Shown piece by piece: positions 2,289 through 18,739 of a DNA stretch of 64,000 bases (position 1 is its first letter; each line of letters opens with the position of its first letter). The stretch lies in the sequence record MK327944.1; one strand, given 5' to 3'. A program made the translations under genes and the position numbers. The notes under the pieces were generated by a model. The model was not told the DNA's origin, did no database searches, and was given only the letters and a program-made list of their open reading frames with translations. This stretch comes from Escherichia phage vB_EcoM_G2540-3.

Positions 2289-3707
2289 TTATGGATAGGT
2301 ATAAATGATACCAGTTTCTAAAGCAGTTTTATGAATGATGTATCCATTGCGCGATTCTTGAACATCAACTTCTGGATAGTCTTTCATCATCTTCTGAAGA
2401 GTGTAACGATGCAGGTAGTATTTACTATCTGGATCTTCAGTTTTCCAATCTTTACCTTCTTCAGTCATTTTTTGGATTTCATCCATAACCCACCAACCGC
2501 ACCAGATATAAGCTGAGCTACGATGTGGAAGAGGATGAACATAAGGTAATTCACCTTCTGGTTCCGGAGCAACTTTATCAGTCACTTGAACTTGACCTGT
2601 GGCTTTAACTGTTTTACTATCATAGTCAGTTGCTGTAACGACAGCAGTAACTTCAATAGTTTGACTTCCAATAGATGAGGTATCAACAGTATATACGTTA
2701 GTTGACCCTTCCACAGGAGAAGAATCTTTCTTCCATGAGTAAGTAATTTGTGCTGCTTCAGGTGCGCCATTAACATTAGCAGTAAATGTAGCCGAAGCAT
2801 CTTGCTGAACATTAATAGAAGGAGGAGTCAATGTAACCTGTGGATTCATTGTCTTCTTATTAACTGTCAATGATACTTCATTGGAAGTAACTTCCTTTTC
2901 ATTATAATTTTCTGCAGTTACTTGGGCTACGCATTTAATTCTTTTTACTCCACTTGTAGTTGGAGTATAGTTAAATGTAGAGTTAGTTTCTCCACCAACT
3001 TGTGAATCATCTACATACCACTGATACGTAGCAGACGCTCCGTCAGGTTGAGAAGCTAATGCAGCAGTAAATTGAACCGGGGTTCCAATTACTCCAGCAG
3101 CAGGACTAGCAGGAGTTACTGCCAAGGTAGTTGTCTGTGTCTTTTTATTAACTGTCAATGATACTTCATTGGAAGTAACGCTCAGTGCATCATAATCTGT
3201 CGCAGTTACTTGAGCTACACACTTAATTTTTTTAACTCCGCTTGTAGTAGGAGTATAATTGAATGTAGCAGAAGTTGCTTCGCTCACAGGAGAACCGTCA
3301 ACGTACCATTGATACGTAGCAGATGCGCCCGATGGCTGTGAAGCTAAGGCAGCAGTAAATTCAACGGCTGTTCCGATTACTCCTTCTGGAGGACTATTAG
3401 GAGTTACAGCTAAAGTAGTTGTCTGTGTTTTATTTTGAACTGTAATAGTTGTACTAATTTCAGCTGTTTCAGCTTCAGAATCAGGAATAGTATTTGTTGC
3501 AACTACCTTAATAGTCTTTTGACCAGCAGGTCCTTTTAATACATAATCAAAAGTTGCTGCTGATCCTTCTTGGGGAGCATTATCTACGCTCCAAGCATAG
3601 GTAATAGTTCCACCTCCAGTTTCACCACTGGGTGTAGCAGTAAACTGCTTGGTTTCATCAATAACCCCTGTTGGTGTTTTAGGAGTTATATCAACTGTAA
3701 AAGCCAT
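2289..3707 (-). CDS. hoc: Highly immunogenic outer capsid protein Hoc with tandem Ig-like domains
   Basis: 472 aa with repeated Ig-like modules (…TYQWYVD…FNYTPTTSGVK.IKCVAQVTA…); position between rnlB and inh as in T4. Confidence 0.85.
   Translation of the reverse strand: MAFTVDITPKTPTGVIDETKQFTATPSGETGGGTITYAWSVDNAPQEGSAATFDYVLKGPAGQKTIKVVATNTIPDSEAETAEISTTITVQNKTQTTTLAVTPNSPPEGVIGTAVEFTAALASQPSGASATYQWYVDGSPVSEATSATFNYTPTTSGVKKIKCVAQVTATDYDALSVTSNEVSLTVNKKTQTTTLAVTPASPAAGVIGTPVQFTAALASQPDGASATYQWYVDDSQVGGETNSTFNYTPTTSGVKRIKCVAQVTAENYNEKEVTSNEVSLTVNKKTMNPQVTLTPPSINVQQDASATFTANVNGAPEAAQITYSWKKDSSPVEGSTNVYTVDTSSIGSQTIEVTAVVTATDYDSKTVKATGQVQVTDKVAPEPEGELPYVHPLPHRSSAYIWCGWWVMDEIQKMTEEGKDWKTEDPDSKYYLHRYTLQKMMKDYPEVDVQESRNGYIIHKTALETGIIYTYP
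2858..3433. repeat. Two tandem ~288-bp repeats (approx 85-90% identical) inside hoc encoding duplicated Ig-like domains
   Basis: Motif ttattaactgtcaatgatacttcattggaagtaac recurs at 2858 and 3146; protein shows two near-identical 96-aa modules. Confidence 0.8.
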
Positions 3708-5066: not shown

Positions 5067-6575
5067 ATGGATATTAAAGTACATTTTCACGACTTCAGTC
5101 ATGTACGCATCGATTGTGAAGAGAGCACGTTCCACGAATTAAGAGATTTCTTTTCGTTTGAGGCCGATGGATATAGATTTAACCCTCGCTTCAGATATGG
5201 CAACTGGGATGGACGAATCCGTCTTTTAGATTATAATCGTCTTCTTCCGTTTGGCTTAGTCGGGCAAATTAAAAAGTTCTGTGATAACTTTGGCTATAAA
5301 GCCTGGATTGACCCGCAAATTAACGAAAAAGAAGAATTATCAAGAAAAGATTTTGATGAATGGCTTTCTAAATTAGAAATCTATTCAGGAAATAAAAGAA
5401 TTGAACCGCACTGGTATCAAAAAGATGCAGTGTTCGAAGGATTAGTTAATCGTCGTAGAATTCTTAATCTTCCAACATCCGCAGGTAAATCTTTAATTCA
5501 AGCTTTGCTTGCACGTTATTATTTGGAAAATTATGAAGGTAAAATTCTTATCATTGTTCCAACAACTGCTCTGACAACTCAGATGGCTGATGACTTCGTC
5601 GACTATCGTTTATTCAGTCATGCAATGATAAAGAAAATTGGTGGCGGAGCATCAAAAGATGATAAATATAAAAATGATGCACCAGTCGTTGTTGGTACAT
5701 GGCAAACTGTAGTTAAACAACCGAAAGAATGGTTCTCACAGTTTGGAATGATGATGAATGATGAATGTCATCTTGCTACAGGAAAAAGTATTTCATCTAT
5801 CATATCAGGTTTAAATAACTGCATGTTCAAATTCGGTTTGTCTGGTTCATTACGTGATGGCAAAGCCAATATCATGCAGTATGTTGGAATGTTTGGTGAA
5901 ATATTTAAGCCAGTAACGACTTCTAAATTAATGGAAGATGGACAAGTAACTGAGCTAAAAATTAATAGTATTTTTCTTCGCTATCCAGATGAGTTCACTA
6001 CTAAATTAAAGGGAAAAACTTATCAAGAAGAAATAAAAATTATTACTGGGCTCAGTAAAAGAAATAAATGGATCGCTAAATTAGCTATTAAGCTTGCGCA
6101 AAAAGATGAAAACGCTTTTGTCATGTTTAAACATGTATCACATGGTAAAGCTATTTTCGATTTAATTAAAAACGAATACGATAAAGTTTATTACGTATCA
6201 GGGGAAGTTGATACAGAAACCCGCAATATAATGAAAACCTTAGCTGAAAACGGTAAAGGAATAATTATAGTAGCTAGTTATGGTGTATTTTCTACTGGTA
6301 TTTCAGTTAAAAATCTGCATCACGTTGTTTTAGCACACGGTGTTAAATCAAAAATCATTGTATTACAAACAATCGGTCGTGTATTACGTAAGCATGGTTC
6401 TAAAACAATCGCAACAGTCTGGGACCTCATAGATGACGCGGGTGTAGTTTCTAAATCAAAAACATCTTCTAAAAAATACTCGCATTTAAACTATCTTTTA
6501 AAACATGGACTTGATCGTATTCAGCGTTATGCTGATGAAAAGTTTAATTATGTGATGAAAGAGGTTAAACTTTGA
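5067..6575 (+). CDS. uvsW: UvsW RNA-DNA/DNA helicase
   Basis: 502 aa, SF2 helicase motifs (LNLPTSAGKS Walker A, DECH box); N-terminus MDIKVHFHDF. Confidence 0.92.
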   Translation: MDIKVHFHDFSHVRIDCEESTFHELRDFFSFEADGYRFNPRFRYGNWDGRIRLLDYNRLLPFGLVGQIKKFCDNFGYKAWIDPQINEKEELSRKDFDEWLSKLEIYSGNKRIEPHWYQKDAVFEGLVNRRRILNLPTSAGKSLIQALLARYYLENYEGKILIIVPTTALTTQMADDFVDYRLFSHAMIKKIGGGASKDDKYKNDAPVVVGTWQTVVKQPKEWFSQFGMMMNDECHLATGKSISSIISGLNNCMFKFGLSGSLRDGKANIMQYVGMFGEIFKPVTTSKLMEDGQVTELKINSIFLRYPDEFTTKLKGKTYQEEIKIITGLSKRNKWIAKLAIKLAQKDENAFVMFKHVSHGKAIFDLIKNEYDKVYYVSGEVDTETRNIMKTLAENGKGIIIVASYGVFSTGISVKNLHHVVLAHGVKSKIIVLQTIGRVLRKHGSKTIATVWDLIDDAGVVSKSKTSSKKYSHLNYLLKHGLDRIQRYADEKFNYVMKEVKL

Positions 6576-7264
6576 ATTATAAATTAATATATGATAATTT
6601 AATTAATAGAGCCCAAAATCGGGCTCGCCTTAATGGATACACTGAAACACATCATATAATTCCTAGATGTATGGGTGGTACAAATGATAAGTGTAATTTA
6701 GTAGAACTAACGGCTGAAGAACATTTTATAGCCCATAAACTTTTAGCTAAAATTCATCCAAACCATTACGGTATAATTAAAGCTGTTATATGTATGGGGA
6801 TGAATTCAAATACTCATGAAAGACACGTTAATAAATCTTACGCATGGGAACGTCGTAAAATGGCAGAACTTCAATCCGGCGAAGGTAATCCATTTTACGG
6901 AAAACACCATACGGAAGAACATAAACAATATATGTCAAAACTCATGAAAAGTCGTCCAATTACATGGGGAAATAAAATTAGTAAAACTAAAAGAATGAAC
7001 CCAACGAAATGGACTGAAGAAGCTAAAAGATTACATTCAATCAATCAATCGGGTAAAAATAACGGCATGTATGGAAGGAAACATTCCGCTAAATCTATTC
7101 AGAAAATTAAAGATAACATGCCAGATAATTCAGGAGCTAATAACCCAGCTGCTAAACCTATAGAAGTAAATGGTGTTAAGTATAAATGTATGAAAGATGC
7201 TTCTAAAGCTACTGGATTATCAATGTACAAACTAAGAATACTTAGAAAAACAGTTAATTTATAA
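6572..7264 (+). CDS. HNH homing endonuclease, MobE-like, apparent TTG start overlapping uvsW stop
   Basis: HNH motif HHIIPRCMGG…NLVELTAEEHFIAH; N-terminus nearly identical in pattern to MobE at 33443-34177; repeated NUMOD-like G.HH..E/KH motifs. Confidence 0.8.
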   Translation: MNYKLIYDNLINRAQNRARLNGYTETHHIIPRCMGGTNDKCNLVELTAEEHFIAHKLLAKIHPNHYGIIKAVICMGMNSNTHERHVNKSYAWERRKMAELQSGEGNPFYGKHHTEEHKQYMSKLMKSRPITWGNKISKTKRMNPTKWTEEAKRLHSINQSGKNNGMYGRKHSAKSIQKIKDNMPDNSGANNPAAKPIEVNGVKYKCMKDASKATGLSMYKLRILRKTVNL

Positions 7265-16209: not shown

Positions 16210-16262
16210 TTGTGTTCCTCATGTTATGTCAGTAAGACTACTATAACACAACACGAGGGACT
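16210..16262 (-). promoter_or_regulatory. Early-promoter-like cassette (GTTTAC…TATAGT) with leader and SD; 53-bp identical copy of 29508-29560
   Basis: Minus-strand reading gtttacaagtccctcgtgttgtgttatagtagtcttactgacataacatgagg; identical at both loci. Confidence 0.55.
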
Positions 16263-16626
16263 TGTAAACTACATTTTGAACTTTTTAGTACGCGTAATAG
16301 GCATGCGTCGATTTTATACTGTTTCATTGTTTGAAGAGCAGTATCAAAAACAGCATTAATGACACCAATTGGATTTCCACCCAAGTTTTTAAGCTTAACT
16401 AATGATAGTTTCTCATTAACACCTATCATTACGATATGCATCATTTTATCGCCCGGCTTAACGTTTTATTCGTATCACCGCCAGAGGTGTATGTACAAAA
16501 TCTAAATCCAGGAAGCACGCTTTCTTCGCCGGCTTGAATAGCAAAAATTTGTGGTATTTTATGCTTAGGATTTAAGTTAACAACCGGCGCCGAAGCGCCG
16601 TCAAATAATTCTGTAATAAGTTCCAT
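16241..16626 (-). pseudogene. Decayed partial copy of the alt 5' end (Alt N-terminal ~130 aa, internally frameshifted)
   Basis: Two ORFs (61 and 67 aa) in different frames that align with Alt residues ~2-62 and ~64-130. Confidence 0.6.
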
Positions 16627-16629
16627 GAT

Positions 16630-18739
16630 TTATCCTTGAACGAACTTGTAAGGCATGTTTGCAATATCTATGCAAGACGCAATAATTCCAAGAGATGATT
16701 CTACTTTCTGTTTAACATTTGATGAAACAAATGATGCAAAGTCAACTCTATCTTCTATATCACCTGTCATTGTAACCAATTCACCAGTTTCCATTAAACG
16801 GTCACCGTCATAGATTACCGATTCGGTGAGTTCTTCTGTGGTCATAACTTCAGCTTGAATAAGCTTGTTGTTAGTTCTAACTGTTCCATCGTTGTAAGAT
16901 GCATCGGTTATTTTATTAACTTTGACCATTAATCCACGTGGCAAAATGACTTCCATTTCATTTGAAGGCGCTAAACTTCCACCGGGTAAAACAACATTGA
17001 CCTTATCAGCCCCAGTAATAACCCGCTAAACTTCCACCGGGTAAAACAACATTGACCTTATCAGCCCCAGTAATAACCCATCCAATTCCAACTAAATTAT
17101 CGCTAGAATTTACTAGTCCTTCATCAGTTTTATCAATAGAAACACTTAGACGCTTTTCGTCTGGTAAAACACCTATAGATGAATCAGTCATCCAAGTACC
17201 AAAAATATTTGGATATAATGATGTTGACACAAAGTTTCTAAAATAAAAAACTCGATTTTTTACCATTGCTTCATATATTGAAGGTAACATTCGTTGTGAA
17301 CGATACAAAGTAATACCTTTTGGTAATCGTTCACCATTTTTAAAGGCTGAATCTAAATTATCAATGGCTTGTTCTATTTCAGGTGCTGTTAAAATACTTG
17401 TACGCTCATCTGGATTATATAATCCCAAAAGAGCATTATTTATGTCTACATATCCTGAACCTACATATTCACGAATTCCGCGTTTTTGCGCTGGTGTGTA
17501 TTTAGATGAATCTTTATTTTCGACTATAGGATGTAATGACCATCCAGCGGTAAGAGCATATCCACGTAATTCTCTTCGAATAATCTTTGTTTTTATTGCA
17601 TTCCAAGAATTTTGCACTAACTCATTATTCGCAGCGTCTTGATTTAAATGCGAATGTCTGTTAATATTTCTTTCAAACCAGGCACCTTTATATTTTTCTA
17701 AAGTATCATCGACGATAGAAGCAATAGTTTCTAAAGTTTTTATTGAAGTAATAGATTCTTTTCGTAATTTTTCTAAAGCTTTATTTTTTATTTCTGCATT
17801 AATAATGGATTCTTTATCTTCAGGAATTATAGAAGCTTCTCTGAATGCCATCCCAGCTGTAACACTGCTAAGAGCATTCTCTAGTGCAAATCCTGAAGTA
17901 GAAATTACCGTTAATTCATTAGAATCAGAAATTAAAGGCGCGTCCGCTGGTTTATTTAATTCTGCCGCTGAAGCCTCAAATTTTTGAAACATCGGTGTTT
18001 CAAATCTAGAAGATTCCAATGACTGACTTTGTGCAATTGCTCTACGGGAAATTTTAACTTTAACGATTACAGCTTGGTCAGAACGTTTATCATTTTCTTG
18101 TGCAATAGATGCTGCAATTGCCTCATTTTTAGTTACTTGAGCTCCAGTATCTTTATTGATATAAACATCACCGACCTTCGATTCAACTTTAGTAAAGAGC
18201 TCGGTACTAATTTCCGGAACCCCTGGAATGTCTTCTAGTGATACATTTTTGCGATGTATAAGAATATATGCATACTTTTTATCATAATCCCAGAGTTCCT
18301 TAAGAAGGACGTATCTGCCACCTGAACGACTACGGATAAGTCTATCAGCAATAACTTGAATTTGTCGAGCTTGGCCAGCAGTTTTAGACTTAAGAATACG
18401 AAGCATACAAGCATCAATTTTATACTGACGCATTGTTTGCATTGCAACAGTAAAAACCGAATTGATATAATTAATTGGGCTTGGACCAAGACCTTTCAAT
18501 TTAGCAATTGAACCTTTAGCGGTTAATGTAAAAGGAACAATATGCATCATTTTATCGCCCATCTTTAAATCACGATTAGTATCACCTCCAGATGTATAGG
18601 TACATAAACGAAAGCCTGGTTGTTCAATTGCGTCATCAACATGAACTGAAAAAATTTGCGGTATTTTCTTCTTTGGATTTAAGTTTGTAATCGGAAGAGT
18701 AGTATCTTCGTCAAATAATTCTGTAATTAGTTCCATCAT
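16630..18739 (-). pseudogene. alt: ADP-ribosyltransferase Alt, interrupted by a 55-bp tandem duplication (577-aa N-part plus 108-aa C-part in shifted frame)
   Basis: Removing one 55-bp copy restores one continuous ~684-aa frame (…VVLPGGSLAPSNEMEVILPRG…), close to the 682 aa recalled for T4 Alt. Confidence 0.8.
16970..17079. repeat. Perfect 2 x 55-bp direct tandem repeat
   Basis: gctaaacttccaccgggtaaaacaacattgaccttatcagccccagtaataaccc occurs twice back to back (16970-17024 and 17025-17079). Confidence 0.9.

Follow-up and report, generated by a model that had tools for sequence, protein, structure and literature searches.

Evidence that a perfect 55-bp tandem duplication splitting the alt gene in the deposited genome of Escherichia phage vB_EcoM_G2540-3 is very probably an untrimmed assembly overlap

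The alt gene of Escherichia phage vB_EcoM_G2540-3, which encodes the Alt RNA-polymerase ADP-ribosyltransferase, is located on the minus strand at 16630..18739 of the 64,000-nt stretch of DNA analysed here (the window), which is the final 64 kb of MK327944 (168,654 bp; Table S4, Korf et al. 2019). The window derives from a T4-like Tequatrovirus, and the region was matched by 523 phage records. The arrangement of genes is the same as in T4: gene 30, alt.1, alt, alt.-1, alt.-2, alt.-3 and gene 54. In T4, the mono-ADP-ribosyltransferase Alt is a head protein that is injected along with the DNA (PMC2988021; T4 GenBank note), and it ADP-ribosylates Arg265 on one RNA polymerase alpha subunit (PMC2988021). 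Two small overlapping ORFs of 61 aa and 67 aa (window 16241-16626, minus strand) resemble the Alt N-terminus and correspond to T4 alt.-1 and alt.-2, for which the T4 annotation indicates an origin by ancient duplication of the initial part of alt. Jbel, G2540 and T2 possess a second, full-length alt paralogue. The annotation "Alt-like (x2)" was considered as a sign of a split alt and was rejected, as Jbel and G2540 have two full-length paralogues.

Direct string comparison revealed that window positions 16970-17024 are identical to positions 17025-17079, such that a 55-bp unit (GCTAAACTTCCACCGGGTAAAACAACATTGACCTTATCAGCCCCAGTAATAACCC in copy 1) is present twice, back to back, within alt. TRF reported the repeat at 16969-17079 with a period of 55, 2.0 copies, 100% matches and 0 indels, in agreement with the perfect duplication described in an earlier note on this DNA. 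The sequence across the join at 17024|17025 reads ...CAGTAATAACCC|GCTAAACTTCC..., and the flanks of the join can also be given as ...CCCCAGTAATAACCC|GCTAAACTTCCACC.... The period-55 identity run extends over 56 nt, and the junction position is thus ambiguous by 1 nt; no microhomology beyond this single nucleotide, which is at chance level, was found at the junction. In the coordinates of MK327944, the repeat lies at about 121,624-121,733. No other perfect tandem duplication with a period of 15-400 was detected in the 64-kb window. The probability that a perfect 55-nt repeat would originate by chance is 4^-55 per position, which makes a chance origin impossible. The repeat is therefore non-random, which does not mean that it is biological. 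A further repeat at window 2850-3443 (288-bp period, 2.1 copies, 79% match) lies within a 472-aa Hoc/PKD-domain head-decoration gene and looks like ordinary Ig-like domain repeats.

As 55 is not divisible by 3, the duplication splits alt into two CDSs. The minus-strand ORFs of the window (18739->17006 and 16956->16630) confirmed the frameshift into products of 577 and 108 aa that had been noted previously. The N-terminal ORF (17006..18739) ends ...VVLPGGSLA-GYYWG-stop and consists of 572 genuine residues followed by GYYWG, five residues that the second copy contributes in the shifted frame. The C-terminal 108 codons (16630..16956) are left as an orphan ORF, and an exact-sequence look-up identified its product as QBO65606.1 (G25403_00202), a GenBank "hypothetical protein" of this phage. 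Exact matches to vB_EcoM_G2540-3 were also obtained for all ten further window proteins tested, among which gp37 (982 aa) and NrdA (754 aa) are listed in the protein collection under no other phage name. Neither the exact 577-aa product nor the exact 108-aa product was recorded in the gene-position index. When one copy of the unit was deleted in silico, a single 684-aa frame was obtained, and the inferred true length of alt is 2055 nt once the extra 55 nt are subtracted. In a full-length comparison (residues 2-684 versus 1-682), the restored Alt shares 98.7% identity with the 682-aa T4 Alt, which upholds the expectation that removal of one copy would return a frame near the T4 size. The 55-nt unit is single in T4, where it matches with 0 mismatches. 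The restored gene shares with T4 alt its flanking genes, the PF03496 domain and the Arg, STS and ExE motifs of this protein family. It differs from T4 alt in that the deposited version is broken into parts of 577 and 108 aa, a difference that we attribute to artefact and not to biology.

The break falls within the ADP-ribosyltransferase domain. In the restored Alt, PF03496 (ADPrib_exo_Tox) matched residues 376-616 with 120.3 bits against a gathering cut-off of 23.4 (E = 8e-35). In the 577-aa product, the match was confined to residues 376-546 and to profile positions 1-153 of 196, which indicated a truncated domain. The 108-aa ORF covered profile positions 161-195 of 196 and, on its own, fell below the family cut-off. 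A phmmer search against PDB aligned SNEMEVILPRG of the restored Alt to AGEYEVLLNHG, which contains the E-Y-E of C. difficile CdtA (7vnj_H). This alignment places an ExE motif at E576-M577-E578 in restored numbering (E574/E576 in T4 numbering), encoded by codons at 16951..16959 on the minus strand. Further upstream, the ART domain has two other motifs, which lie before the break and are encoded within 17219..17302 on the minus strand. They comprise the Arg of TLYRSQR (R480; 17300-17302), in a region that aligned to TVYRR of CdtA, and FVSTSLY (S505-T506-S507; 17219-17227), for which the STS assignment relies on motif reading.

The earlier note had described the loss of the Alt C-terminus, and this description could be sharpened. 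The break follows residue 572 and lies 4-6 codons upstream of the ExE motif, which is present on the restored frame only; the deposited frame severs the motif from the remaining domain, and the start codon of the orphan ORF is M577, the middle residue of the motif. By analogy with the R-S-ExE ADP-ribosyltransferase family, E576 and E578 are the putative catalytic glutamates. Because the break precedes the ExE motif, the 577-aa product as written is predicted to be catalytically dead.

The distribution of the duplication among relatives was assessed with queries that span the repeat. A 251-nt query around the repeat aligned to 196 nt in the best 40 of 211 matching records, which corresponds to one copy in each. 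A 40-nt query with the junction at its centre (17005-17044), for which no megablast seed is possible without the junction itself, had no match in 50,697 phage records; MK327944 is absent from the collection searched, which accounts for the negative result. A 35-nt query of the alt junction likewise had no match in IMG/VR. The same search method did recover the corresponding junctions of two sister genomes, G2540 and G8, in their own records, and these searches served as positive controls for the alt junction. Logan contigs that share NrdA (DRR634204_19 and SRR28437055_5440) were considered as an independent assembly of this phage and were rejected, as they are 93-97% identical to the window and represent different phages.

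The length of the repeat is equal to the assembler k-mer used in the source study. Korf et al. [quoted passage not shown] Both Illumina with SPAdes and PacBio with HGAP were used in that study, and its tables give no per-phage assignment. The coverage of G2540-3, at 410x, is compatible with MiSeq and is no proof of it. We infer that G2540-3 was among the SPAdes-assembled genomes. The behaviour of the assembler with circular templates has been described: terminal repeats cluster at 55, 77 and 99 bp, a pile-up that was attributed to k-base end repeats of circular templates (CheckV; PMC8116208), and overlaps at contig ends arise from SPAdes and need removal (Unicycler; PMC5481147).

If the duplication was produced by this pipeline, one perfect 55-bp tandem repeat at an unrelated site would be expected in each of the study's other rotated genomes. 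The window and the complete genomes of G2540 and G8, about 402 kb of T4-like sequence, were scanned for perfect tandem repeats. The G2540 record (MK327936; 168,886 bp) begins exactly at the rIIA CDS, and the last base of the window aligns with the last base of this record. Its sole perfect tandem duplication with a period of 15-400 is a 55-bp repeat at 87,839-87,948 within baseplate gene 11. Gene 11 is annotated as two CDSs, and removal of one copy restored a 219-aa gp11. The G8 record (MK373787; 169,650 bp) also begins at rIIA and contains one 55-bp perfect duplication at 116,869-116,980, within baseplate-hub gene 28. Gene 28 is likewise annotated as two CDSs, and removal of one copy yielded a 177-aa gp28 identical to the gp28 encoded in the window. 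The identity runs were 56 nt in alt, 55 nt in G2540 and 57 nt in G8, and the 55-mers of the three genomes show no sequence relationship to one another and lie in different genes. The junctions of G2540 and G8 are each private to their own record or its RefSeq copy, and the G8 duplication is mirrored in RefSeq NC_054915.1. The only other perfect tandem repeat in the roughly 402 kb was an in-frame 18-bp repeat (six codons) in the G8 tail-fibre gene 37 (158,744-158,779).

Both baseplate genes, 11 and 28, are essential in T4. Frameshifts in either are incompatible with plaque formation, and the duplications in G2540 and G8 therefore cannot be real. The alt duplication shares their signature. The error was not universal in the study, given that no such repeat was found in three of its small siphoviruses, MM01, WFI and PTXU06 (the last over its first 42,321 bases). 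The genomes free of the repeat may have been trimmed or assembled from PacBio data. The GenBank record of PTXU06 (MK373789) is 45,904 bp, compared to 42,321 bp in Table S4.

These results indicated, with very high confidence, that the 55-bp duplication in alt is an assembly and finishing artefact and not a feature of the phage DNA, and that the real G2540-3 very probably encodes one intact 684-aa Alt. The earlier note had listed an assembly artefact among its alternatives, and this alternative is now favoured on account of the match between repeat length and SPAdes k and of the sister genomes with 55-bp duplications of their own. The stated k, the rotated sister records and the signature in two sister genomes, which were observed directly or taken from the paper, are consistent with the following sequence of events. 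The G2540-3 genome, being circularly permuted, would assemble as a circle, and SPAdes at k = 55 would output this circle as a linear contig that was cut arbitrarily and whose last 55 bases equalled its first 55. The arbitrary cut would have landed within alt, which would place the original contig ends at 17024|17025. Re-ordering by the authors to the conventional T4 start at rIIA would then have joined the old contig ends, and the k-mer overlap, if left untrimmed, would have become a perfect internal 55 + 55 tandem repeat, one copy of which would be the retained overlap. Gene callers would subsequently have divided alt into two CDSs of 577 and 108 aa.

The repeat resembles the k-mer overlaps of de Bruijn graph assemblers such as SPAdes in several respects: its length equals k, its copies are identical, it occurs once per genome at an arbitrary site and within the output of one pipeline, and it is found in a circularly permuted genome that was manually re-arranged. 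It differs in that such overlaps usually appear as a direct terminal repeat, whereas here the overlap became internal after re-ordering and mimics a gene-splitting mutation.

Among the alternatives, the one that survives best is a genuine 55-bp duplication that arose spontaneously in the sequenced stock, by replication slippage or illegitimate recombination, and inactivated alt. The deposited sequence does contain the repeat, and alt is non-essential in T4, so that a mutant of this kind could be propagated. The truncated product keeps the N-terminal region and loses the ExE motif; it would be a catalytically dead Alt fragment, possibly still packaged, and the lesion could be reverted by recombination between the copies. 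Genuine tandem-duplication frameshifts are known in T4 from the classical rII-type duplications, in which direct repeats of a length not divisible by 3 shift the reading frame and could revert via loss of a copy. However, nothing would tie the length of real duplications to an assembler k, and sister phages that form plaques would not show exactly 55 bp time and again, at unrelated sites that include essential genes. A genuine event in alt would require the match to k to be coincidental, would leave the single 55-bp duplications in genes 11 and 28 of the sister genomes unexplained, and would have occurred at a junction with only the 1 nt of homology expected by chance. It was also seen in no relative, whether in the best 40 of 211 matching records, the 50,697 phage records or IMG/VR. 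We therefore regard a spontaneous duplication in the stock, and with it a real alt knock-out whose length coincides with k, as very unlikely. The small probability that we retain for it reflects the dispensability of alt, the unspecified platform for each phage and the siphoviruses that lack the repeat.

A real duplication would, in effect, give a host-modifying enzyme that is injected a crude on/off state. The earlier note had offered as one alternative a switch of this type, in which the duplication forms and collapses reversibly at high frequency to control a packaged enzyme. Its sole support is that homologous recombination between two 55-bp direct repeats could, in principle, reduce them to one copy, and every objection to a genuine duplication applies to it as well. 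A phase-variable switch should present both states at one site, yet the best 40 of 211 matching relatives were all one-copy, with no "off" state among them, and the alt junction was missing from the 50,697 phage records (without MK327944) and from IMG/VR. Recurrence at the same site would be expected in related phages; instead, the 55-bp repeats lie at different sites and come from one pipeline only. The k match and the sister duplications in essential genes speak against both a real frameshift and a reversible switch, and the switch is, in our estimate, highly improbable. Least credible, to the point of being negligible, is that the duplication is real and that translation skips it to give full-length Alt, through ribosomal bypass in the manner of T4 gene 60 (a 50-nt translational bypass) or through frameshifting: the tandem repeat does provide a take-off codon and, 55 nt away, an identical landing codon, but the proposal is superfluous given the k-mer artefact and leaves the corresponding repeats of gene 11 and gene 28 unexplained.

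On the preferred reading, that of an untrimmed k-mer overlap, the duplication has no biological significance, since alt is almost certainly normal in the phage itself. A spurious 55-bp insertion that splits a gene would be present in at least three GenBank records of one study, namely MK327944 (alt), MK327936 (gene 11) and MK373787 (gene 28), and such insertions have seeded orphan "hypothetical proteins" in nr, as exemplified by the 108-aa product of alt. The practical output is a set of corrections to GenBank and RefSeq records, together with a screening rule for genome scans. The rule applies to rotated genomes that are circular or circularly permuted. If such a genome contains a lone perfect tandem repeat with a period that matches one of the usual assembler k values (55, 77, 99 or 127), the repeat should be presumed to be an untrimmed contig overlap unless reads show otherwise.

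Two further observations were made in the window and in the databases. At window 5067-7264 (plus strand), a 502-aa uvsW helicase ORF overlaps the ORF that comes after it, which encodes 230 aa from a TTG start (6572-7264). The counterpart of the 230-aa ORF is annotated in G8 as a group I intron endonuclease and is missing from G2540, and the ORF may represent a mobile homing-endonuclease insertion between two uvsW pieces. Partial proteins assigned to Enterococcus faecalis (e.g., WP_411416250.1 and WP_411401510.1) are T4-like fragments of the Alt C-terminus, gp29 and UvsW. They are carried on contigs of 275-1312 bp, and their presence in an E. faecalis assembly is probably due to coliphage contamination.
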